A stretch of 32,000 nt of DNA from positions 67,601 through 99,600 of the forward strand of contig NZ_JAQQEG010000025.1 of the NCBI RefSeq assembly GCF_046027395.1, read 5' to 3'. Below the pieces are notes generated by a model. The model did no database searches, had not been told where the DNA came from, and saw only the letters and a list, made by a program, of their open reading frames with translations. The position numbers and the translations under genes are program-made. Origin of the DNA: Paraburkholderia dipogonis (GTDB taxonomy: Bacteria > Pseudomonadota > Gammaproteobacteria > Burkholderiales > Burkholderiaceae). Shown here one piece after another: positions 9,531-28,436 of this stretch (positions are counted from its first letter, which is position 1; the number at the start of each line of letters is the position of its first letter).

Positions 9531-9607
9531 CGGGGTGTAGCTTAGCCTGGTAGAGCGCTACGTTCGGGACGTAGAGGCCGGAGGTTCGAATCCTCTCACC
9601 CCGACCA
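9531..9607 (+). tRNA. tRNA-Pro (anticodon CGG)
   Basis: Manual cloverleaf. Acceptor CGGGGTG/CACCCCG, D arm GCTT..GAGC, anticodon stem CTACG/CGTAG with loop TTCGGGA (CGG), T arm GGAGG-TTCGAAT-CCTCT, discriminator A, encoded CCA. Confidence 0.9.
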
Positions 9608-9612
9608 GATTT
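9563..9612 (+). repeat. attL: 50-bp direct repeat (3' half of tRNA-Pro from the anticodon loop, plus 5 nt)
   Basis: TTCGGGACGTAGAGGCCGGAGGTTCGAATCCTCTCACCCCGACCAGATTT is identical to 25406-25455. The flanking bases differ on both sides. Confidence 0.9.
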
Positions 9613-11649: not shown

Positions 11650-12792
11650 ATGCGACTTGCTGACTTCATCTCGCGAGACATGGAGCCGATTCTGGCGCAA
11701 TGGGAGGCGTTCGCCGCCACCCTTCTGCCGGCGGCGGCAAACATGGAATCGTTGGCGCTGCGCGACCACGCGCAGCAGATTCTTCTCGCCGTGGCAAAGG
11801 ACTTGCAGACTTCGCAAACCAGGGAAGCACAACGCGAAAAATCAATGGGGCGAGGGCCCACTCTGATCGACGCCACCGAAACAGCCGCGCAAGCCCACGC
11901 CCTTCTGAGAGCGAGGGCCGGCTTCAACATCAACCAGCTTGCCGCCGAATATCGCGCACTGCGCGCAAGCGTGCTTCGCTTATGGATCGACCATTGCGAG
12001 CCGGAAGCGGCTGATCTGGACGACATCATTCGATTCAACGAAGCAATTGATCAGGTACTTGCCGAATCGGTCACATTTTTCAGTGCACAGATCGAGCAGA
12101 ACCGTAACCTTCTGCTTGGCATGCTGGGGCACGACATGCGCAGCCCTCTGCAGGCGATTCAGGTGACCGCGTCGTGTCTGGCAGCACTGAACGCCGGGGA
12201 GCAAATATCGGAAGCCGCCGGCCGCCTGATACGTAGCGGGGCCCGAATGCAGGCGTTGCTTGACGATTTGAGCGATTTCAATCGGACCAGACTGGGCTTG
12301 GGCATCAACGTCATACCCACCAGTGTCAATCTCGCGGACGTGCTTGCCGACGAGCTGGACGAGTTGCGCGCGGTTCATCCTGACAGGCAGATTGAGCTGC
12401 ACGTGAGTGGCAATTCACAGGGGGTCTGGGACGGCCACCGCCTGCAACAATTGATCGGAAATCTTGTACTCAATGCCATTAAGTACGGGGCACAAGACAC
12501 TCCAGTGCACGTGACAGTGACTGGCGACGTAGCACTTGTTCGTATCGACGTCAGCAACCGCGGACCTGCGATCGATCGCGCCACGCTGGCGCGCATTTTT
12601 GATCCCTTGATGCGGGGTCCGGACCATCAGAGCAAAGACGACAGGGCGGATGGCCTCGGACTGGGACTCTATATTGCAAGCGAAATCGCCAAGGCCCACC
12701 ACGGTGCGATCGAAGCGCGGTCCGGCGAGACAGAGACCTCCTTTTCAGTGTCACTCCCACGTGCGGACGACGCGGGACGAGGGGCTGGATAA
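11650..12792 (+). CDS. cytoplasmic sensor histidine kinase (no adjacent response regulator)
   Basis: GGAG RBS before the ATG. H-box LGMLGHDMRSPLQAI, N-box LIGNLVLNAIKYG, G-boxes DVSNRGPAI and GLGLGLYIASEIAKAHHG. No obvious TM segment. Confidence 0.85.
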   Translation: MRLADFISRDMEPILAQWEAFAATLLPAAANMESLALRDHAQQILLAVAKDLQTSQTREAQREKSMGRGPTLIDATETAAQAHALLRARAGFNINQLAAEYRALRASVLRLWIDHCEPEAADLDDIIRFNEAIDQVLAESVTFFSAQIEQNRNLLLGMLGHDMRSPLQAIQVTASCLAALNAGEQISEAAGRLIRSGARMQALLDDLSDFNRTRLGLGINVIPTSVNLADVLADELDELRAVHPDRQIELHVSGNSQGVWDGHRLQQLIGNLVLNAIKYGAQDTPVHVTVTGDVALVRIDVSNRGPAIDRATLARIFDPLMRGPDHQSKDDRADGLGLGLYIASEIAKAHHGAIEARSGETETSFSVSLPRADDAGRGAG

Positions 12793-13045
12793 TTGACCCG
12801 ATGAAAAGGCAATATCGACCTGAATCACTTGGCGGAGAGTCTTGAACGCTACCGTACAGACGTTCCCTCTGTGCCGTGAGACGCTGTCGCTTCCTACGTG
12901 CATCCGGCAATCGCGAGTCGCCCGAGCGGGTTTGCGGACCCGTTGCAGTTGGCAGAGCCCCCCCCGGTCCTTGTTAGGAGCGGGCGCCAAACACCACTGG
13001 ATTTCTCGGGCTGACCGCGATCCGGAAGTCAAAAGAGGAAGCATC

Positions 13046-13438
13046 ATGTCGGCGCAGAGAATCTCCTACCGGCGGTATCTGGATATTTCCTGTAAGCGTC
13101 GCTCAGCCGTGAGCGATCGAGATATGAACCGCCCTCGCCGGCGAGCCGCCATCGCTTTTTCAGACAACGTTCCGCTGACCCACGGCCATTTCGACCTGTC
13201 GCAGAGCAGGGTCGAAATTTTGTTGACGATTGCGCACGAGCTGTTCAATCGTTTGACCCCACTGCGACTCGCGGTTCAAACCCTCCGCACGGCATCTCCG
13301 GATCAGCCAGAGATACTCGGGGCGATTGACACGATTGACCGGGAGATTACCAGGATCGCGAGCCTAGCAGAGGATTTGATGGGCCACGTCTTTTCAGGCG
13401 AAAGGTTTGCCGACGTAAACGCACCACGCCAGGGCTGA
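13046..13438 (+). CDS. small DHp(HisKA)-like protein lacking an ATPase domain
   Basis: Strong RBS AAGAGGAA 5 nt before the ATG at 13046. The 130-aa product has an H-box-like helix LLTIAHELFNRLTPLRLAVQTL and a second helix LGAIDTIDREITRIASLAEDLM. No N/G boxes follow. Confidence 0.5.
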   Translation: MSAQRISYRRYLDISCKRRSAVSDRDMNRPRRRAAIAFSDNVPLTHGHFDLSQSRVEILLTIAHELFNRLTPLRLAVQTLRTASPDQPEILGAIDTIDREITRIASLAEDLMGHVFSGERFADVNAPRQG

Positions 13439-13569
13439 CGGTCGGGGCAATGCGCAGCGACATTCTTGCCGTTTGTTCGACGCGCTCACACGGCTTCGTT
13501 ACGTGATCCTGTCAAGACGACGCCTACGCATGCCGTGCGGTGCGGATCAGATGCCTGGGAGCGAAACAC

Positions 13570-14289
13570 ATGACGAACGAACATCGTGCCAAAGAGAATC
13601 ACTTGCTCAGTGTTCTTCCGGACGCAGAATGGGCGCGTCTGGCAGCGCACCTGGTCCCTGTCAATATGCCCCTGGGGCAGGTTGTGTATGAGTCTGACGC
13701 AAACGTGGAGAACGTCTATTTTCCGAGGACGGCAGTTGTATCGATGCTGCACCTGATGCATGACGGAACGCCCGCAGAAATTGCGATCGTGGGTAACGAA
13801 GGACTCGTTGGGATCGCGCTTTTTATGGGTGGAGAGACGATGCCAAACAGGGCCATCGTGCAAAGCGCCGGGCAGGCATATCGCCTGGATGCCCGAATCC
13901 TGAAGGAGGAATTCGACAGAGCTGGTCCGGTGCAGCGGCTATTGCTACGCTATACCCAGGCATTGATCACGCAGATGGCCCAGACGGTCGTTTGCAACCA
14001 GCATCACTCGATGGACCAGCAAATGTGCAGATGGCTGCTGCTCAGTGTCGACCGCCTACCGCTGGACGAACAGAAAATGACGGTTGAACTGATTGCGAAC
14101 ATGCTTGGGATCCCAAGGGCCGGCATGACCGAAGTGGCAATGAAGCTGCAGGATGCCGGGTTGGTACGATGCAGCGGTAATCATGTTGAGGTGCTGGATC
14201 GGCCGGGACTCGAAAAGCGCGCGTGCGAATGCTATGGCGTGGTGAAACGGGAGTTCGACCGACTGTTGCCCGATATACAGGCGATATAA
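13570..14289 (+). CDS. Crp/Fnr family transcriptional regulator
   Basis: MTNEHRAKENHLLSVLPDAEWARLAAHLVPVNMPLGQVVYE...VYFPRTAVVS is a cNMP-binding-like barrel. The C-terminal HTH is ELIANMLGIPRAGMTEVAMKLQDAGLV. A GGGAG motif lies upstream of the ATG at 13570. Confidence 0.85.
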   Translation: MTNEHRAKENHLLSVLPDAEWARLAAHLVPVNMPLGQVVYESDANVENVYFPRTAVVSMLHLMHDGTPAEIAIVGNEGLVGIALFMGGETMPNRAIVQSAGQAYRLDARILKEEFDRAGPVQRLLLRYTQALITQMAQTVVCNQHHSMDQQMCRWLLLSVDRLPLDEQKMTVELIANMLGIPRAGMTEVAMKLQDAGLVRCSGNHVEVLDRPGLEKRACECYGVVKREFDRLLPDIQAI

Positions 14290-18878: not shown

Positions 18879-19763
18879 GTGAGAGCAGTCGTTATTAGCG
18901 CGTTAAACATTGTGATGCCGGTGCCGCATAGTCCTGAACGCTACGTTGAAATGTTCAGGAAGGCATACCGAACCAAGCGGGTGGTCAAAATCCGCGGCCA
19001 GTTTGCTGGAATATTGGGGGCCTTCGACGGTCGAGAGGAAGACGGCTTCTACTACGGGGAAGTTTACAAATTTTACGATTTGAAGCTTACGGGCAAGTGG
19101 CTGAACATGCTCCAGCAAGCGCCAGCGGAAGAGCAGGATCTGGCGGACCTCAAGGTCCCGGAACATTTGAAGCCCGGATTGGAGGCATTCCCGTTCCTTT
19201 TTCATGCGCCAACGCACAGGCTGTTTTTCATTAGTCGCGAGACCAATGAACACCTTGGGCCGGTCGACGCGGGAAGATATTTTCGGGAGCTGTTGAATCA
19301 GCCTCGACTCGTCGACCAGTACGGGCAAGTAAACGTTACGGTCATACCCGATGCCGATTCACTTGAACGGATCCTTGGTCTGCCGGATCTCAGAAAGTTG
19401 CACATCGTCATCACCCCGCCGAACCCTGATGACTGGCACGATCTTGAGCAGGAAATCAGAGACCGTTTGGCGGAGCAAAATGCGGCCACAATGGTAACGG
19501 TCCTCGTTGCAGAAAAAGGTGAATCTCTTGTTCCGAATGGTCCGACGCGCATGCTCTCCGAAGTAGCGCAAAGCAATGGCTACGTCGAGGCCAGGGGAGC
19601 CGTCGAAGGCGGGAAGGTTTCGACATTTTCGACAAAGCAACATCCCATGCTCGCCCCGTCGCAGTACGATCCGGACGTAGAAACAGTTCGGACGGCTCTG
19701 CTAAACGTTGCGGAGACACATCTCGCCCGAATTAGACGACCACGGCCGGCCAACAGAGACTAA
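18879..19763 (+). CDS. hypothetical soluble protein (possibly DUF4747-like; unverified)
   Basis: GTG at 18879 follows AAAAGGGTGAG (alternative ATG at 18915). The 294-aa product has no TM segments. The first 160 codons of the track ORF (from 18393) are an open-frame extension through GC-rich DNA. Confidence 0.7.
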   Translation: MRAVVISALNIVMPVPHSPERYVEMFRKAYRTKRVVKIRGQFAGILGAFDGREEDGFYYGEVYKFYDLKLTGKWLNMLQQAPAEEQDLADLKVPEHLKPGLEAFPFLFHAPTHRLFFISRETNEHLGPVDAGRYFRELLNQPRLVDQYGQVNVTVIPDADSLERILGLPDLRKLHIVITPPNPDDWHDLEQEIRDRLAEQNAATMVTVLVAEKGESLVPNGPTRMLSEVAQSNGYVEARGAVEGGKVSTFSTKQHPMLAPSQYDPDVETVRTALLNVAETHLARIRRPRPANRD

Positions 19764-19766
19764 CTG

Positions 19767-20411
19767 ATGCTACGTGATCTCAAGAGATCGTATAGCGGCG
19801 TCGCAGAGATATTCGCGCGGTATTGGACCGCATACGGAGGGGCAAAGGCTGTATTTTTGTCCCCGTATCTGCACGCGTCGATGGTTCTGACCGCCCTGCT
19901 CGGCCATCTATGGGTGGATGCTGCCTGGTGGGGAGACGCAATTGCCTCTTTGCCAACCATGATCGGGTTTGCGATCGGGGCGTATGCGATCGTGCTCGGA
20001 TTTGGCGACGAGAAGTTCCGCTCGTTGCTTACGCAACGGAGGGATGGGAAAACAAGTCCGTATGTGACGATCAGCGCTTCCCTAGCCCATTTTATAGTCG
20101 TACAGTTGGTCGCGTTAATCGCAGCCTTGATCGGAAAGGGACTGGATTTTGGCCTGCGCGAGGACCAAGGAGTCGGAGCACTAGTATTTCGTGCGGTAGG
20201 TAGCGTCGACTTCGTTCATGAATGGATCGCGCCGATCGGAAATTTCTTGGGGTTTGCGCTATTCATCTATGCCATCCTTACTGCGCTCGCGACCGCGATG
20301 GCAATATTCAGACTGACGACGCTGCTTGAGAGAGAAGCGCCTGCCAGGGGTAGCGCGCGTGAGCGTCCAGCGAATGCGGCGAACGAACCTACAAAGAATG
20401 ACCAGAAGTGA
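19767..20411 (+). CDS. 4-TM integral membrane protein, unknown family
   Basis: The ATG lies 3 nt after the upstream stop (TAACTGATG). There are four hydrophobic spans (AVFLSPYLHASMVLTALLG, LPTMIGFAIGAYAIVLGF, ISASLAHFIVVQLVALIAALIG, IGNFLGFALFIYAILTALATAMAIF) and a charged C-terminal tail. Confidence 0.7.
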   Translation: MLRDLKRSYSGVAEIFARYWTAYGGAKAVFLSPYLHASMVLTALLGHLWVDAAWWGDAIASLPTMIGFAIGAYAIVLGFGDEKFRSLLTQRRDGKTSPYVTISASLAHFIVVQLVALIAALIGKGLDFGLREDQGVGALVFRAVGSVDFVHEWIAPIGNFLGFALFIYAILTALATAMAIFRLTTLLEREAPARGSARERPANAANEPTKNDQK

Positions 20412-20569: not shown

Positions 20570-21136
20570 TCACACGAGGTCCACGGCTTTGCGCTGCATC
20601 TCGTCATTGACGTCGATATATGCTTGCGTAGTCGAGATGTTGCGGTGCCCGGCGAGCGACATGAGCACGCGAACACCTACGCCTTTGTTCGCCAGATTCG
20701 TGATGAACGAGCGCCGACCTGAATGGCTGCTCGCGCCTTCGATACCTGCTTCCTTGTAGAGCCAGTAGAAGTACTGGCACAGCGTGTTGGCCGTGAAACC
20801 GGCCCGCTTCTGTGTATAGAACAACGGCCTGTCTGGCTGTTTCTTCTTCAAGCTCGCAACATACGCGGCAAGTTCGCGCCGCAGCTTTTGCCCGAGAAAT
20901 ACCGTGCGTGCATGACGGCCCTTGGTCTGCTCAGGAGCAAGTCGAATTTCCGACTTGATCGAGCCATCCGCGTTGACCACGTCCCCAACAAGCAATGCAG
21001 CTACTTCTCCGACCCGCATACCGGCCCAATGCGTCAGTAGCAACATAGCCCGGTTACGTAGCGCATGCCTACGTAGCGAGATATAGGTCAGTACCTGCTT
21101 GAGTTCCTTTTCAGTGAATGTCTTGGCCTGCTTCAT
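20570..21136 (-). CDS. catalytic-domain-only tyrosine recombinase (188 aa)
   Basis: GAGGAA RBS. The full catalytic set appears present: R in WAGMRVGEV, K in TKGRHART, HxxR in HSGRRSF, H in AGHRNISTT, Y in QAYIDV. There is no N-terminal SAM-like/arm domain. Confidence 0.85.
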   Translation of the reverse strand: MKQAKTFTEKELKQVLTYISLRRHALRNRAMLLLTHWAGMRVGEVAALLVGDVVNADGSIKSEIRLAPEQTKGRHARTVFLGQKLRRELAAYVASLKKKQPDRPLFYTQKRAGFTANTLCQYFYWLYKEAGIEGASSHSGRRSFITNLANKGVGVRVLMSLAGHRNISTTQAYIDVNDEMQRKAVDLV

Positions 21137-21151
21137 GTGTTTCCTCTAAAC

Positions 21152-21162
21152 AAATGAATTCC
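21152..21162. repeat. left copy of an 11-bp inverted repeat (AATGAATTCCT)
   Basis: Its exact reverse complement lies at 21507-21517. It sits 16 nt upstream of the recombinase start codon. Confidence 0.5.
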
Positions 21163-21303
21163 TTGTTCCAGAGGATGTATTATTTAGTTATACGAATCAA
21201 TAGAAGAATGACGCGTTGTAGGTATCAGAAGAAACGAACACCTGCGTGAAGAACAAAGGTTTTTGCTATTTGCTTTGGTTTCGTGTTGCGGTCGCGCCGA
21301 ACG

Positions 21304-21318
21304 CATTGGTTAAACCAA
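21304..21318. promoter_or_regulatory. perfect 15-bp palindrome ATTGGTTAAACCAAT in the AT-rich spacer
   Basis: Read directly: ATTGGTT-A-AACCAAT. It lies among five same-orientation GTTCC pentamers (21164, 21356, 21368, 21419, 21449). Confidence 0.4.
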
Positions 21319-21506
21319 TCGACGAGGTATCAGTGATGGCGTATTAGTGACTTTCCGTTCCGCCATGTGTTCCGCGTTCGTATGCAGATCACCTGTCTTC
21401 TATATCTGGACCGTCATCCGTTCCTTGTCTAACTTCCCGTCAGTCGTTGGTTCCTCGTCAGCTACCGTAACTTCTTCGAGGTATTTCTTCACGAAATCTA
21501 TAGCCA

Positions 21507-21517
21507 TAGGAATTCAT
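21507..21517. repeat. right copy of the 11-bp inverted repeat (AGGAATTCATT)
   Basis: Reverse complement of 21152-21162. It lies just inside a 6-bp-stem hairpin (AGAGCA..TGCTCT, 21520-21539) that could terminate the HUH gene. Confidence 0.5.
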
Positions 21518-21613
21518 TAAAGAGCATTGCGTGGTGCTCTTCGAAGTGAAAGCTGCGAGGACGATTACGTCAGCAACGCAGCATGGACTACTTGGTGGGG
21601 TCTTGCTTTATTG

Positions 21614-22126
21614 TTATCGGCTATCAGGAACGTACACATTCCCGTAGTCAACGCTGTCGGCGTTGCCCATGCCGACTTCCTTCGTGATGTAGTTGAGCCA
21701 GTCATCGCCGTACATTATCTGCACGTCGATCTGCTCGTTACCGAAGCTGGTTTTCCGCCATGCGTTACGTATTGCCTCGACTATCTCCTCATGGCTCTTT
21801 TCCTCACGGAAGTTTCCCATGACGCAGTGGTAATGCAGGTTCTTTCCGGTCGCCACACCTTCCAGCACAGGAATCACGTAGTGGCACTTCGGCCCATTCC
21901 CGTACATGCTTCGATTCAGGCGACTCATGAAGTGTCGGAAGTTTTTTCGCGCTTCCTCAGCAGTCAACGTTTGGACTGTCTGCCCTTTGTCCGTTCCGAC
22001 GATTCGATACTGTTTCATCGTGAGCGTAACGGCATGCGTCATCCACGATCGGTAGCCAAGCATCCAGTCGCGTGTCGCTGTCTTTATATCTGTATTTTTC
22101 GTCATAGCCGTATTTATGCCGGCCAC
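21614..22126 (-). CDS. compact HUH-superfamily endonuclease (Rep/relaxase-like)
   Basis: 170 aa carrying the three Rep motifs in order and with plausible spacing: motif I HAVTLTM, motif II (HUH) NLHYHCVMG, motif III (YxxK) LNYITKEV. Start is uncertain (GTG at 22126 or ATG at 22105; no clear SD). The antisense ORF 21527..22138 was rejected. Confidence 0.6.
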   Translation of the reverse strand: MAGINTAMTKNTDIKTATRDWMLGYRSWMTHAVTLTMKQYRIVGTDKGQTVQTLTAEEARKNFRHFMSRLNRSMYGNGPKCHYVIPVLEGVATGKNLHYHCVMGNFREEKSHEEIVEAIRNAWRKTSFGNEQIDVQIMYGDDWLNYITKEVGMGNADSVDYGNVYVPDSR

Positions 22127-22217
22127 GGCGTAACCTGACGGTTAGTGTCACAATCCTATTGATTTCATTGGCAAGCGGCTACATCCTGGATTGCACCAAA
22201 TAACTCAGGAGTCCAAT

Positions 22218-22661
22218 ATGAGCACGCTTACTAGCCTGAAACTCGTCGCCGCAAAGCGTCCCGGCTCGCTGCCGCAGATCGTGCAGCGTCGTAACCGTCT
22301 GATCTCGAAAATCTGGGAACAGACAGAACTCGCCAAGGCTCAGCAAGCTGGCACGGCGTTTCGGCCGACTCTGTTCCGTTCGGTGAAGGACGCAGAAACC
22401 GGCGGGCGCCGTAACGTGGAAGTGCAGAAGCGTGTGCGTGCTTGGTGGTGGACTGCCGAAAACGGCAAAGTCTGCATGCACGTCCGCTACGGAACGAAAA
22501 CTCTCGAACTGGCAAAGGGCAAGACGGCCATCGAGATCGGTACGCTCGATGACCTGATCCCGACACTTGAAATGCTCAAGGTCGCAGTCGCAGCCGGCGA
22601 ACTCGACGCTCAAATCGAAGCCGTCAGCGGTCAGATGCGTACGGGCTTCGTTGGCAAATGA
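22218..22661 (+). CDS. conserved hypothetical protein (island-associated family, name not recalled with confidence)
   Basis: GGAG RBS and ATG at 22218. MSTLTSLKLVAAKRPGSLPQIVQRRNRLISKIWEQTELAKAQ...RVRAWWWTAENGKVCMHVRYG...AVAAGELDAQIE resembles proteins I recall from Pseudomonas/Burkholderia islands. It is divergent from the HUH gene. Confidence 0.65.
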   Translation: MSTLTSLKLVAAKRPGSLPQIVQRRNRLISKIWEQTELAKAQQAGTAFRPTLFRSVKDAETGGRRNVEVQKRVRAWWWTAENGKVCMHVRYGTKTLELAKGKTAIEIGTLDDLIPTLEMLKVAVAAGELDAQIEAVSGQMRTGFVGK

Positions 22662-22856
22662 ATGCGCTGGGGACTGCTTGACCCGGCAGTCCTTGTTCGC
22701 AAATCGGCGCGAATACTTCGTTCCCAAACCGGTTCCAGTTGTATTGCTTATCAGTGCACATCTGTGCTTGCATTACATACTGGGCGGGCGCAACGCTATA
22801 GGAGCCGAATGTGGTTGGAGGCTTCTTGAAAAAAATGGCGGCCTCCATGGCCATCC

Positions 22857-23417
22857 TCACTTGCCGAAAAATTCAGAAAATTGTTTGAAAGACGGGCATT
22901 TCCTCCGAACAGAACCGACGTCGAGCCTTTCGGCAATCAATTTGTTATGTACGCTGTTGACATATGCCGTGGTCTTGTTCGATAGGAGCCACACCTTGTC
23001 ACGGATATATTCTTTCGGCGAGGGAATCGTCTCGGGATGGTGGACCGCTTTCAGTTCCTTTTGCAGATTCAGCGCTGACGTGATCGCGGAAACATCGCTC
23101 AGTAACCACGCCTCCAGTTCTTCCGCGGGTATTACAACAGCTTGCGTAGAAGCTGTGCTCTTTTCCAGGATTGCCTCTAGGGTCGTTCTAAGCGCTTTCG
23201 CATCGTTACGATCCAAATCATGAACGAGCAAAATTTTTGTGCATCCCTTATGCGCCAGATCTTTGCACCACCCTGGGGTCTTCTTCTTGAGTGGTCCGCA
23301 ACCTTTGCCTGTGAAGTGCGCAGTCGAAACGGGCTTGCCCGTGATTTTTCTGGCTAACAATTTCAGCACTTCGACGTCGCTCGGATCCTCGGCGATAATG
23401 CCAATCTTCGCCGGCAT
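22857..23417 (-). CDS. TOPRIM-like protein (DUF4276-like, from memory)
   Basis: MPAKIGIIAEDPSDVEVL supplies the acidic E/D after strand 1. ILLVHDLDRND is a DxD motif. VVIPAEELEAWLL supplies a late conserved E. The C-terminal ...RKCPSFKQF matches my memory of DUF4276. Its ATG overlaps the ATPase stop (TAATG). Confidence 0.75.
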   Translation of the reverse strand: MPAKIGIIAEDPSDVEVLKLLARKITGKPVSTAHFTGKGCGPLKKKTPGWCKDLAHKGCTKILLVHDLDRNDAKALRTTLEAILEKSTASTQAVVIPAEELEAWLLSDVSAITSALNLQKELKAVHHPETIPSPKEYIRDKVWLLSNKTTAYVNSVHNKLIAERLDVGSVRRKCPSFKQFSEFFGK

Positions 23418-24700
23418 TATGATAGCCCTCCGCTGCGCCAATATTCCCCGAGCGAACCCGTTTCCGCGAGATAGGTATGAAGGGCACGCTTGGCATCCTT
23501 CGTCAGCCAATTGTCAAGTTGCTTTACTTGGGTGCCGTTGCGCGCCATTTCGACTACGAAAATATTCTCTGTTTCGAGTTGATCGACGAGCAGATCGGAG
23601 TGCGTCGAAATGAAGGTTTGCTTGGTTTTTGAGTAGGCTTTTAGAGTGTCGACAACGCGTGAGAGGAGGCCGTGATGCACGCAGACCTCTGGCTCTTCGA
23701 CCATGAGCAACCGGCTTGAATCAGTAATTATATAAAAAGCAAGCGCCAGCGTTTTAAACGTTCCCTCAGAGAGCTGGTTGAACGTGATGTAAGAAGATCC
23801 AATCTGTACTTTTGGAATTACAAGTGTCTTCCGCTTCCTGACCTTCTTTACCCCGCCTCCACTGCGAACTTCCGCCGTAGAAGAACTGAGCTCGATCTCT
23901 TTCCACGTGATGCGGCTAAGGAGTCCAAGTTGTTGGCGCGAGACAAACCTACAATAAGCATCATACAGTGCTTCGTTTAGCACCTTTAGCCGGTACAGAT
24001 CGTAGATGAAACGCAAATGAGGTGCCGACGAACCGTACGAGTCTGCTAGACGGCCGTCCTCATCAACTTCGAAGCTGCTCGGACATCGAACAGGATCAGT
24101 GAAGCGCGAGGCACTATAGTAGGTGATCCCTGCGCGAAAATCGGCGATCGACGAAACTGCGTCGACGATTGTTGGGTCCCGCATCAAATCGATTCCCGAC
24201 CGATCGATATCCATTTTGCTGACCTGGCCAAACCGAGCTTCGCCGTTGAACAAGAAAAAATCTTCTTGATAATATTGCGCCTTTGCGCTATCGCGGAAAA
24301 ATTCGATCGGTGGTAAGTTTCGCCACGATTTTGAACCAGTGATACTCTGAAGATTCCAAGCTTCCGAAACCGCAACGAGTTCGTCCCGACGTGTGGATTC
24401 CATAATGCTGAAGCGCATCCTTAATCCAATTCGCTTATCGTTTCCGCCAAGCCTGAACCAAGCAGTAACTTCCGAGTCCGCCCCCTTTCCAAGCTGTTCA
24501 AGTGCTCTCTTATTGAATCGCCCCTGCTTGCTGTTCAACAAGCGAACGGCTTGCAAAATGTTAGTTTTCCCTGCTCCATTGACCCCGATAAGGGCCGATA
24601 GGTCCTTATCGGGCGCAAAGCTGGTCGATAGGCAAGATCTGTAACCCTTGATTTCAAGTTGCTCAAGGCGGACATCTTCCGCTGTTCCGTTTGGCGCCAT
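23417..24700 (-). CDS. ABC/SMC-type (AAA_15/AAA_21-like) ATPase
   Basis: The ATG at 24700 gives MAPNGTAEDVRLEQLEIKGYRS.. Walker A GVNGAGKTN. Signature-like LSEGTFKTLAL. Walker B/D-loop LLMVEEPEVCVH. H-loop FISTHSDLL. The large insertion between Walker A and the signature is typical of OLD/PARIS-type ATPases. Confidence 0.85.
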   Translation of the reverse strand: MAPNGTAEDVRLEQLEIKGYRSCLSTSFAPDKDLSALIGVNGAGKTNILQAVRLLNSKQGRFNKRALEQLGKGADSEVTAWFRLGGNDKRIGLRMRFSIMESTRRDELVAVSEAWNLQSITGSKSWRNLPPIEFFRDSAKAQYYQEDFFLFNGEARFGQVSKMDIDRSGIDLMRDPTIVDAVSSIADFRAGITYYSASRFTDPVRCPSSFEVDEDGRLADSYGSSAPHLRFIYDLYRLKVLNEALYDAYCRFVSRQQLGLLSRITWKEIELSSSTAEVRSGGGVKKVRKRKTLVIPKVQIGSSYITFNQLSEGTFKTLALAFYIITDSSRLLMVEEPEVCVHHGLLSRVVDTLKAYSKTKQTFISTHSDLLVDQLETENIFVVEMARNGTQVKQLDNWLTKDAKRALHTYLAETGSLGEYWRSGGLS

Positions 24701-25011
24701 TCTTATCGCTCGTTTTGATACTAGGAGGAGTAAAGCACCCGACCGTAGCAAAGGTTGGCAGCATTATGCCGCATGGTCAGGACTGTTCTTCTTCGATAGG
24801 TCTCTGCGTATGTCGGTGCCCGCGCGACTACTACCTCTCTGGTTGACGGCAAATGCAGCGAGCTTCTTTAGCACGATGTGAAGCGACGAGGCCTCGGCAA
24901 CGCATCGGGTCGACTACACAATAAGCCGTGGGGAGACAATTGCCCTCGGCTCTACCTCGATCGCGTATTCCAGCCGCATAAATACTTGCACAACCGAGGA
25001 GACTTATTACC

Positions 25012-25197
25012 GTGAGATACGAAGAAATCCTGACCCGCTCCGATCTGCGTGAAGTCAAAGACCTTGAGACGCAGCGTATCGACGCGCAAAAGCTAGCGGC
25101 CAAGCGCCAGACGGTCGCCGCCAAGCGCGCCGACATCCAACATAAGATGCAGAAGCTGCAAAAGCAGCTTGCTGATCTCAACGCAAAACCGATCTAG
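25012..25197 (+). CDS. possible small coiled-coil protein (61 aa)
   Basis: GTG start about 10 nt after GAGGAG. The product is heptad-like and charged (..KLAAKRQTVAAKRADIQHKMQKLQKQLADLNAKP). It is short with no recognised family, so this is weak. Confidence 0.3.
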   Translation: MRYEEILTRSDLREVKDLETQRIDAQKLAAKRQTVAAKRADIQHKMQKLQKQLADLNAKPI

Positions 25198-25405: not shown

Positions 25406-25455
25406 TTCGGGACGTAGAGGCCGGAGGTTCGAATCCTCTCACCCCGACCAGATTT
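25406..25455 (+). repeat. attR: second copy of the 50-bp tRNA-Pro 3'-half repeat
   Basis: Identical to 9563-9612. The tRNA 5' half is absent here, so this is not a functional tRNA. Confidence 0.9.
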
Positions 25456-27140: not shown

Positions 27141-28436
27141 ATGCAAGCTTCTTTTCAACCCGCGGCGGCATCGCCGCGTCCCATCGCAAACGCCCACGAA
27201 AGCGCAGTCAAGGCGAAACCGAAGGCATTCTCACCCGACCTCAGCGCATCAAGCCTCACCGATCCAGACAACGCTCCCGCCGTACGTCTGTTGACCGACA
27301 CATTGCAGGAAGCAACCCGCCGCAACGCGTCAGACCTTCACATCGAGCCGGCGGAACACGGCTGGCGCGTGCGCTTACGAATCGACCGCGTACTGCACGA
27401 AATCCTGCCGCCGCCCGCGCATCTGCGTGATGCATTCATCACTCGTGTGAAGGTGCTCGCTCGCATGGATATCGCGGAGCGTCGCGTGCCGCAAGACGGC
27501 CGGCTTCGTATTTCGACTTCGCCCGGACGCGTCGAAGACTATCGCGTCAACTCGCTGCCGACGCTATTCGGCGAGAAACTCGTGCTGCGCAGACTCGACG
27601 CGCTGCCCGCCGATCTCTCACTCGACTTGCTCGGCCTCGATCTGCGCCAACGCGAGACAATGGACGCAGCGATTCGCGCGCCGCACGGCCTCGTGCTCGT
27701 CACCGGTCCCACTGGAAGCGGCAAGACGTTGTCGCTGTATTGTTTCCTGAACCTGCTCAACGGCGAAACGCGCAATCTCTGTTCAGTGGAAGATCCCGCG
27801 GAGATCCAGTTGGCCGGCATCAATCAGGTCAGCGTGCGCGAGAAAGCCGGGCTCACTTTCGCGGTCGCGTTGCGCGCATTTCTCCGTCAGGACCCCGATG
27901 TGATCATGGTCGGTGAAATCCGTGACGAAGAGACCGCCGACGTCGCCGTAAAAGCCGCCCAAACTGGCCACCTCGTCCTGTCGACCCTGCATACGAACGA
28001 CGCGCCGGCAGCCGTCGCGCGCCTGATCGACATCGGCGTCGAGCCGTATAACCTCGCGGCCGCGTTGCGGATGGTGACCGCACAACGGCTGGTGCGACGG
28101 CTGTGCGTCGCGTGCCGCGTGCCGGCGCCGCAGTCGGTCGCGGCGCTGCGAGCGGCGGGTTTCAGCGAGCATCAACTCGACGGCTGGCAACCTTACGCCG
28201 CGGCCGGATGCACTGCGTGTCACGGCATCGGTTATCGGGGCCGCGTCGGAGTTCATCAGGTGATGCCCGTGTCTGATGCGATGCGAGAGTTGATCGTCGC
28301 AAGCGCCGGCACGCATGAACTCGCGCGGCTCGCGCAAACCGAACAGGTGGGCACCTTGCGCGACGCGGCATTGGCTCGTGTGCGCGATGGCACCACCAGT
28401 CTCGCTGAAGCGCTCGCCGCCACTGAGGTCGCATGA
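27141..28436 (+). CDS. pilB: GspE/PilB family type IV pilus (type II secretion-like) assembly ATPase
   Basis: Walker A VTGPTGSGKT, Asp box, Walker B DPDVIMVGEIRD, His box, tetracysteine CVACR...CTACHGIGYRGR. It is short (431 aa) and the start is not verified. Confidence 0.85.
   Translation: MQASFQPAAASPRPIANAHESAVKAKPKAFSPDLSASSLTDPDNAPAVRLLTDTLQEATRRNASDLHIEPAEHGWRVRLRIDRVLHEILPPPAHLRDAFITRVKVLARMDIAERRVPQDGRLRISTSPGRVEDYRVNSLPTLFGEKLVLRRLDALPADLSLDLLGLDLRQRETMDAAIRAPHGLVLVTGPTGSGKTLSLYCFLNLLNGETRNLCSVEDPAEIQLAGINQVSVREKAGLTFAVALRAFLRQDPDVIMVGEIRDEETADVAVKAAQTGHLVLSTLHTNDAPAAVARLIDIGVEPYNLAAALRMVTAQRLVRRLCVACRVPAPQSVAALRAAGFSEHQLDGWQPYAAAGCTACHGIGYRGRVGVHQVMPVSDAMRELIVASAGTHELARLAQTEQVGTLRDAALARVRDGTTSLAEALAATEVA

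Follow-up and report, generated by a model that had tools for sequence, protein, structure and literature searches.

The 32,000-nucleotide (nt) stretch of Paraburkholderia dipogonis DNA analysed here (hereafter the window, positions 67,601 to 99,600 of contig NZ_JAQQEG010000025.1) carries on its minus strand a two-gene unit in which the gene for an ATPase of the ATP-binding cassette (ABC) type comes first and that for a small protein of the DUF4276 family second. The original prediction, made from the sequence letters, had placed this pair at 22857-24700, a range that proved correct although the strand had been left unstated. The coordinates of the genes, motifs and island features are collected in Table 1. 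The two reading frames meet at CTATCATAATGCCG (also given as ...CATAATGCC...), where, as had been noted, the stop codon of the ATPase gene and the start codon of the DUF4276 gene share one base of a TAATG. The Shine-Dalgarno-like hexamer found shortly before this start codon may couple translation of the two genes. The G+C content of the pair is 50.3%, compared to 62–64% in the chromosomal flanks, and the low local value given in the original prediction was exact, at 25/60 for positions 23701-23760. Two antisense, plus-strand open reading frames (ORFs), at 22567-23223 and 23239-23613, found no support and were treated as spurious.

Table 1. Positions within the window of the ATPase/DUF4276 gene pair, its motifs and the features of the island that carries it.
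Feature	Position	Strand	Detail
ABC-type ATPase gene, 427 amino acids (aa), HEC-01A-like, AAA_15/AAA_21	23417..24700	-	ATG 24700, TAA 23419-23417
Walker A codons, GVNGAGKTN, residues 39-47	24560..24586	-	G39, N41, G44, K45 invariant in 47 homologues
ABC signature codons, LSEGTFKTL, residues 310-318	23747..23773	-	Q309, S311, E312, G313, T314 invariant
Walker B codons, LLMVEEPE, residues 331-338	23687..23710	-	E335, E336, P337, E338 invariant
H-loop codons, STHSD, residues 365-369	23594..23608	-	H367, S368 invariant
GGAGGG, Shine-Dalgarno-like hexamer	23426..23431	-	Within ATPase 3' end, 8-nt spacing to DUF4276 ATG; read from sequence
TAATG stop/start overlap of the two genes	23415..23419	-	Read from sequence
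Gene for DUF4276/Toprim-like putative nuclease, 186 aa, HEC-01B-like	22857..23417	-	ATG 23417-23415, TGA 22859-22857
Toprim motif 1, IIAEDPSD, residues 7-14	23376..23399	-	Glu10 ends strand 1 (4-9); E10, D14 invariant in 48 homologues
Toprim motif 2, VHDLDRND, residues 65-72	23202..23225	-	D67-x-D69 after strand 3 (59-65); D67, D69 invariant
Third acidic cluster, IPAEELEAW, residues 96-104	23106..23132	-	After strand 4 (91-95); E100, E102, A103, W104 invariant
Terminator-like hairpin and T-run	22829..22853	-	Just 3' of DUF4276 stop; pattern scan, consensus match only
attL, 3' part of tRNA-Pro(CGG) (tRNA 9531-9607)	9563..9612	+	Exact 50-nt repeat of 25406-25455; island left end
Island integrase, 482 aa	9752..11200	+	phrog_1 integrase 6.7e-25; Pfam Phage_int_M
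DUF6641 backbone gene	22218..22661	+	Upstream edge of the pair's cargo slot; Pfam DUF6641; 79 related loci in Betaproteobacteria
61-aa backbone ORF	25012..25197	+	Other edge of the pair's cargo slot; 70-98% identity in loci L001-L004, L008-L010 and L024, irrespective of cargo
attR, second copy of the 50-nt repeat	25406..25455	+	Island right end, 706 nt from ATPase start codon

The first protein of the pair belongs to Pfam families AAA_21 (5e-19) and AAA_15 (3e-15) and matches, at 100% identity, a protein recorded as "AAA family ATPase [Paraburkholderia dipogonis]"; the same protein sequence is found on 16 contigs from different samples. All four ATPase motifs quoted in the original prediction were located, and in an alignment of 47 homologues with 39–78% identity the GxxGxGK, QLSEGT, EEPE and H367 positions are all invariant. 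At position 199, the Q-loop position that follows the strand at 192-196, the consensus is Q and the window protein has R. Because the AlphaFold2 (AF2) model of the protein (pLDDT 82.7, the model's own local confidence score) retrieved PtuA, Rad50 and SMC heads in Foldseek searches with E-values of 2e-13 to 5e-11, the ABC fold can be considered secure. This agrees with the ABC-type ATPase of the original prediction, and Walker A, signature, Walker B and H-loop are intact. The C-terminal half also aligned with the ATPase of P2 Old in hhalign (probability 96.4%). The C-terminal tail (23417-23480, minus strand) carries conserved positions of its own, with G415, L417, G418 and W421 invariant and E419, Y420, G424 and G425 conserved in at least 90% of sequences.

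The second protein is a member of Pfam DUF4276 (PF14103; 1.3e-16, 61.8 bits, with a cut-off of 30.2), its residues 10-181 aligning to positions 2-188 of the 192 in the model. In the profile comparison that had been proposed for it, this 186-aa protein gave no Pfam match to DUF4435, RloB or Toprim_OLD, so that the claim of a Toprim clade different from those of OLD and PARIS held. The three small-protein motifs of the original prediction were all found at the expected length of 186 aa. Over 48 homologues the invariant positions are E10, D14, the loop G37xGCG41, K46, D67, D69, E100 and E102, together with W104, D108, E129, P134-K135-E136 and H157-N158, meaning that the acidic residues whose conservation was in question are all kept. 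The AF2 model (pLDDT 93.4) is built as b1-a1-b2-a2-b3-a3-b4 followed by a helical C-terminal part, and in it the E, DxD and ExE elements are placed in the Toprim arrangement. Its top neighbour in the PDB was 6nk8_B, the Toprim-containing C-terminal region of the Burkholderia pseudomallei OLD protein (BpOLD; Foldseek probability 0.97, template-modelling score 0.45), and its top viral neighbour in BFVD was an RloB-like protein (score 0.52). One paper presents DUF4276 and RloB as new members of the Toprim superfamily that carry the E and DxD residues (PMC12065111), and HEC-01B, of which more is said below, was reported to share the metal-binding site of BpOLD (bioRxiv 10.1101/2024.01.29.577857). 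Pfam membership, motif placement and these two papers thus agree with the Toprim-type, DUF4276-like protein that had been proposed, and on its own evidence we regard the modelled protein as a probable Toprim. Among Cys and His residues of this clade, C40 (in the G37xGCG41...K46 loop) and H157 are invariant, and C59, C174 and H66 are conserved in at least 90% of sequences; it is possible that the conserved tail of the ATPase and these Cys/His features might represent a docking motif and a metal site, respectively. With homologue E-values reaching 1e-117 and 1e-282 for the pair proteins, with the Pfam scores given above, and with the quoted motif residues invariant over 47–48 homologues that are 39–86% identical to the window proteins, the features of the pair lie, as judged from sequence, far beyond chance.

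The pairing of the two genes is obligate. We collected 87 loci with DUF4276 relatives, from three IMG/VR contigs, four genomes (of four phyla or classes) and 80 metagenome contigs, and a homologous ATPase gene lies immediately upstream and on the same strand in 82 of them. Four of the remaining five have less than 420 nt of upstream sequence, and only one is a true orphan (L109, 1986-2504), where the DUF4276 gene adjoins unrelated sequence of high G+C; it is an exception and forms no pattern. Among the 80 junctions that could be scored out of these 82, 36 show an overlap of 8 nt, 19 one of 4 nt and eight one of 1 nt (63 in all), an arrangement consistent with translational coupling. The pair is found across Betaproteobacteria, Desulfuromonadota, Gammaproteobacteria and Bacteroidota, and a DUF4276 profile search of 1.84 billion representative proteins returned 2,514 relatives with E <= 1e-3, of which 148 have E <= 1e-30; almost all of the relatives stand alone and are about 190 aa long. 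An origin chiefly in phages finds no support, because the small protein had no match in PHROGs and none in cultured phage genomes, and the pair occurs on only three IMG/VR contigs. In the plasmid search, the small protein retrieved only six cyanobacterial plasmid records, at 25–30% identity; five of these matches are annotated as DUF4276 beside an AAA ATPase, and the Calothrix one as a hypothetical protein. One of the homologues lies on a plasmid of Synechocystis sp. PCC 6803 (27175-27714).

The closest genomic relative is that of Ralstonia solanacearum, whose DUF4276 protein is 86% identical to that of the window. In two of the loci of this species (L005/L006, 6385-9617), insertion sequence (IS) elements split the ATPase gene and part it from the nuclease gene, while one strain (L007) keeps the DUF4276 gene alone, beside an IS66 element, and these copies look inactivated from their sequences. 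A NERD-UvrD helicase gene lies directly upstream of the pair in R. solanacearum (L005/L006, 4283-10561), in Pseudomonas (L092, 4905-8567, with a 4-nt overlap) and in a metagenome contig (L116, 1-1092), the Pseudomonas and Ralstonia helicases being 53% identical. By analogy with the GajA and GajB proteins of Gabija, helicase and pair may form a three-gene variant there. As a regular third gene, however, the helicase was rejected, since it is present in these three lineages only and is absent from the window.

The combination of these two genes is not new. The original prediction had left room for the novelty of the pairing, which was not borne out, because it already carries a name as the PADLOC candidate HEC-01 ("Hma-embedded candidate 01"), an ABC ATPase with a TOPRIM protein (Payne et al., bioRxiv 10.1101/2024.01.29.577857). 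The best of 135 PADLOC matches of the ATPase is HEC-01A (PDLC04175, 3.8e-25, 86.7 bits), with weaker, generic ATPase matches to AriA, mad3, Old, AbiLi and GajA and weak ones to NsnB. For the small protein the best match is HEC-01B (PDLC04196, 5.8e-14, 50 bits), and 21 of its 23 matches are to models named HEC-01 (HEC-01B for 20 of them, HEC-01A for one), PDC-M31B accounting for the remaining two; these matches were judged on the scores of the hidden Markov models (HMMs), and the PADLOC coverage thresholds were not applied. The composition and layout of the window pair are those of HEC-01, namely a HEC-01A-type and a HEC-01B-type gene, adjacent, co-oriented and overlapping at TAATG. In both cases a two-gene unit joins an ABC ATPase to a small DUF4276-type TOPRIM protein, and the difference resides in the setting, as the window copy is not embedded in Hma but stands alone in a tRNA-Pro island. 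What is new here is a divergent member of a known candidate system, which is of limited novelty.

That setting is the strongest new evidence for a role of the pair in immunity. The pair lies on a 15.8-kb island inserted in tRNA-Pro(CGG), with a G+C of 54.6% against the 62–64% of the flanks, and occupies a cargo slot (22662-25011) between the DUF6641 gene and a 61-aa ORF. The pair is absent from all 79 genome loci found with DUF6641 and is therefore cargo and not part of the island backbone. In Burkholderia diffusa and B. seminalis this slot is taken up by Pycsar (PycC and PycTIR, 1.5e-94) and in Burkholderia sp. Ax-1724 by RmrT/RmrA and the candidate PDC-S31; Rosmer and AbiL are among the defence systems listed for the slot in related islands. 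A mechanical census, in which 150 ORFs downstream of DUF6641 from about 50 loci were scanned against PADLOC at E <= 1e-10, further returned ThsA and ThsB (Thoeris), RT_UG17 (DRT), SoFic, AbiLi, BovA (Borvo), MzaA (Mza), AbiD and a type II methyltransferase. The stretch after DUF6641 is thus a variable defence hotspot across Betaproteobacteria, and because it holds such varied systems in related islands, the pair is placed in a defence hotspot of a mobile element. The 61-aa ORF was rejected as part of the defence system and belongs to the island backbone, since it is kept in sister islands that carry other cargo.

We consider it probable, although well short of certain, that the pair is a horizontally acquired HEC-01-type anti-phage (or anti-mobile-element) module expressed from one translationally coupled transcript. 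The defence reading is well supported by the location in a defence-cargo hotspot on a mobile island and by one published protection result, obtained in E. coli B, where a cold-seep representative of HEC-01 was active against one or more of the phages T4, T5 and T7 (PMC12881386). The two-gene NTPase-nuclease immunity module of the original prediction accordingly finds support in the families, the hotspot context and this report, the function of the window copy itself being an inference. As for how such a module would work, PARIS likely provides the template, as in that system the AriA scaffold releases the tRNase AriB upon sensing a phage protein (PMC11464382); in P2 Old, destabilisation of the tetramer opens the Toprim site and leads to tRNA cleavage (bioRxiv 10.64898/2026.07.10.737580). 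By analogy, the ATPase would oligomerise and form a complex with the small Toprim nuclease that holds the latter inactive, until an infection cue is sensed, for which a phage protein or an aberrant DNA structure could serve. Binding or hydrolysis of ATP would then release or open the nuclease, which would cut nucleic acid through a metal site formed by Glu10, Asp67-x-Asp69 and Glu100/Glu102, and the growth of the phage would be arrested, probably through abortive infection, so that the window copy too might confer protection. Gabija and class 1 OLD proteins cleave or nick DNA. Accordingly, the window nuclease could cut tRNA in the manner of AriB and P2 Old, or else DNA in the manner of GajA and class 1 OLD.

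A number of observations weigh against this interpretation. The HEC-01 scores of both proteins are modest, and the HEC-01A alignment covers only the N- and C-terminal lobes of the ATPase, which suggests that the window pair belongs to a clade divergent from, and lying outside, the existing HEC-01 models. In the original test of HEC-01 in E. coli, no protection was seen from any phage tried (bioRxiv 10.1101/2024.01.29.577857), and the sole positive report is sparse in detail (PMC12881386). With regard to the Toprim assignment, no Foldseek match of the DUF4276 model reached E <= 1e-3 (the E-values were about 0.02), and generic three-layer alpha/beta folds (Rossmann-like and flavodoxin-like) rank closely behind the top matches. 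No Toprim alignment was obtained with hhalign between the 48-sequence DUF4276 profile and P2 Old (probability 0.2), a weak test with a single-sequence target, and the search of the profile against PDB sequences found no solved relative but only a de novo designed protein (E 0.08). It is because of these weak Foldseek E-values and negative sequence-level tests that we call the protein a Toprim with probability and not with certainty. The evidence, moreover, fits tRNA and DNA targets alike, and the window copy and its close relatives are known here through their sequences and predicted models.

Several named systems combine similar parts and were compared to the pair. MADS comes close in composition, as MAD3 is an AAA15/21 ABC ATPase and MAD4 a DUF4276 homologue, and MAD3-MAD4 is listed among ABC-ATPase-plus-TOPRIM systems (DUF4276, MADS3-4) in the PARIS paper (PMC11464382). 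Although MADS3 and MADS4 are the best NCBIfam matches of the two window proteins, they score 60.9 bits against a cut-off of 420 and 20 against 160, respectively, and neither a methyltransferase nor other MADS genes adjoin the pair, whose neighbours are DUF6641, Rep, an integrase and the 61-aa ORF; MADS was rejected on these grounds. PARIS shares the split between ATPase and Toprim (AriA with the DUF4435 protein AriB) and its carriage in mobile-element hotspots, but AriB is a 35-kDa protein and the 186-aa window protein about half that size, and PARIS was rejected as the small protein had neither a DUF4435 nor an AriB match in Pfam and PADLOC. The AriA matches of the ATPase probably reflect generic ATPase domains only, since the two PADLOC AriA models have the same lengths as Pfam AAA_21 (304) and AAA_15 (374). 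AbiL is likewise a two-gene system, with an AAA15/21 ATPase (AbiLi) and a small Toprim-like protein of the RloB family (AbiLii), and it resembles the pair also in that the top viral neighbour of the small-protein model is RloB-like and that an AbiLi homologue sits in the equivalent slot of another genome. It was rejected given the lack of an RloB/AbiLii match for the small protein and the weakness of the AbiLi match (2.3e-17).

Members of the OLD family (P2 Old and BpOLD; classes 1-3) and GajA also combine an ABC ATPase with a Toprim nuclease, but OLD proteins are single-chain fusions whereas the window has two genes. An OLD fusion nuclease was rejected based on the two separate ORFs and no PF20469 match at E <= 0.1, and Gabija based on the lack of a helicase gene (GajB) in the slot and on GajA matches that cover the ATPase lobes only. 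Among solved structures, the one nearest to the ATPase model (E 2e-13) is PtuA of Septu and retrons, likewise an ABC ATPase with a small nuclease partner; its partner PtuB, however, is an HNH and not a Toprim nuclease, and the NCBIfam PtuA score is 29.9 bits against a cut-off of 500. Menshen has the ABC ATPase NsnB, and some of its variants include a Toprim effector domain of the DUF4276 type (PMC12065111). It differs in having three genes, with NsnA, and in that its DUF4276 is a domain of NsnC, and it was rejected because the NsnB match is weak (4.2e-13) and no NsnA or NsnC was found.

If the pair were not a defence module, the explanation we would turn to is addiction, meaning a toxin-antitoxin (TA)-like unit that stabilises the island, where the DUF4276 nuclease would act as a toxin restrained by the ATPase and loss of the island would kill the cell. 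The tight coupling of the genes, their location at the very edge of an integrative island beside attR, the Pfam label of AAA_21 ("putative AbiEii toxin, Type IV TA system") and the presence of the TA-type RmrT/RmrA in the same slot of sister islands would all be in keeping with such a role. We nonetheless regard it as unlikely, as the absence of the pair from all 79 related DUF6641 islands indicates that this island family is maintained without it, and many copies sit in chromosomes as inserts of just the two genes, with no mobile backbone around them. TA-like behaviour, besides, is compatible with abortive infection, and would make of addiction a shade of the defence model rather than a true alternative to it. 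A service to the DNA metabolism of the element (replication, recombination or repair, of the RecF/RecR or SbcCD type) could be argued from the resemblance of the ATPase model to Rad50 and SMC heads, from weak RecF matches and from the rolling-circle Rep gene and two recombinase genes nearby; RecR, primases and topoisomerases are, moreover, Toprim proteins. This is very unlikely in our view, given that the pair is variable cargo absent from those 79 islands, that the slot elsewhere holds Pycsar, Thoeris, DRT, Rosmer and AbiL, that all of the HMM families nearest to it are ATPases of defence systems (HEC-01A, AriA, MAD3, Old, AbiLi and GajA), and that the RecF and Rad50 scores fall far under the family cut-offs.

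We give hardly any credence to the idea that the pair is part, or a variant, of one of the larger named systems (MADS, Menshen, Gabija or PARIS), with the remaining genes lost or in another place. The secondary PADLOC matches to mad3, AriA, GajA and NsnB, the NCBIfam matches to MADS3 and MADS4, and the NERD-UvrD helicase found upstream of the pair in Pseudomonas, Ralstonia and one metagenome contig, which recalls GajB, do speak for it; but the MADS scores fall well below their cut-offs, the slot has no methyltransferase, NsnA, helicase or DUF4435 gene, and the two-gene form is the rule at 82 of the 87 loci. Least credible of all is the view that horizontally transferred DNA has left a remnant here that is decaying or inert and has no current function. 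IS elements do break up the relatives in Ralstonia solanacearum, and the first test of HEC-01 found no defence, but in the window both frames are intact with every catalytic residue kept, the overlap and the Shine-Dalgarno-like site are preserved, and the ATPase sequence is identical on the 16 contigs from different samples. The anti-phage module of the HEC-01 type remains the reading we prefer.

In terms of its significance, the window copy in itself adds little beyond a clean and intact case, standing alone, in a genus that can be cultivated, and independent support from context for the defence role. The family to which it belongs is nevertheless a widespread one, with about 2,500 representative clusters of DUF4276-type small proteins at E <= 1e-3, and metagenome surveys count ABC-ATPase/DUF4276 pairs among their more abundant "candidate" systems. 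The putative nuclease, with its 186 aa, ranks with the smallest Toprim effectors, which would make it a compact model for the gating of Toprim nucleases by ABC ATPases. A bolder proposal, which we put forward as doubtful, is that the ATPase/DUF4276 clade is a mechanistically distinct "minimal split OLD" and that its carrier represents an undescribed family of tRNA-Pro integrative elements in Betaproteobacteria. Such a clade, of about 148 representative clusters (E <= 1e-30), may have a trigger and a substrate that differ from those of PARIS, Old and Gabija, and its specific features are the conserved C-terminal tail of the ATPase and, in the nuclease, the GxGCG..K loop, the PKE and HN motifs and the Cys/His residues. 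The tRNA-Pro elements, defined by a set comprising an integrase, a clamp-loader-like AAA protein, a rolling-circle Rep, DUF6641 and a short second recombinase, appear to be a multi-slot vehicle for defence islands, comparable to P4-like satellites. The more useful by-product of this work is this family of carrier islands, whose cargo slot could be mined for further candidate systems.

The island itself lies between the tRNA gene and a gene for a CNNM/CorC transporter, at an insertion site shared with Paraburkholderia acidipaludis (L008). Along it lie, in order, the integrase gene, two unknown genes, the clamp-loader-like AAA gene, an unknown gene and a cargo slot, followed by the short tyrosine recombinase, the rolling-circle Rep and DUF6641 genes, the cargo slot of the pair, the 61-aa ORF and attR. 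The backbone recurs in Joint Genome Institute (JGI) contigs with an identical pair (L001-L004), as well as in P. acidipaludis, B. diffusa, B. seminalis and Burkholderia sp. Ax-1724. No mention of DUF6641 was found in the literature searched. The short tyrosine recombinase (188 aa, catalytic domain only), the Rep (REP_ORF2-G2P) and DUF6641 form a module (20570-22661) that is found in many Betaproteobacteria and may be either a nested mini-element or a replication/resolution unit of the island.

Another slot (18897-20411, plus strand) holds a gene for a DUF4747 protein (288 aa, Pfam 8e-63, phrog_10040) and, 4 nt further on, one for a protein with four hydrophobic, putative transmembrane segments (214 aa, phrog_20580). 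Neither protein had a match in PADLOC-DB. The two are of the abortive-infection type of lambda RexA/RexB and mycobacteriophage Sbash gp30/gp31, and they probably make up a second defence cassette on the same island. In the equivalent slot of JGI contig L001 lie genes for a BstXI-type restriction enzyme and an N6/N4 methyltransferase. What we call the first cargo slot of the island (11650-14289, plus strand) carries a histidine kinase gene (RsbRD_N-HisKA-HATPase), a possible truncated HisKA ORF and a gene for a Crp/cNMP-binding regulator, a cargo that is missing from the JGI relatives. Metagenome contig L001 (1-18128) carries two related islands in tandem, in which the end with the ATPase/DUF4276 pair abuts the integrase end of the next.

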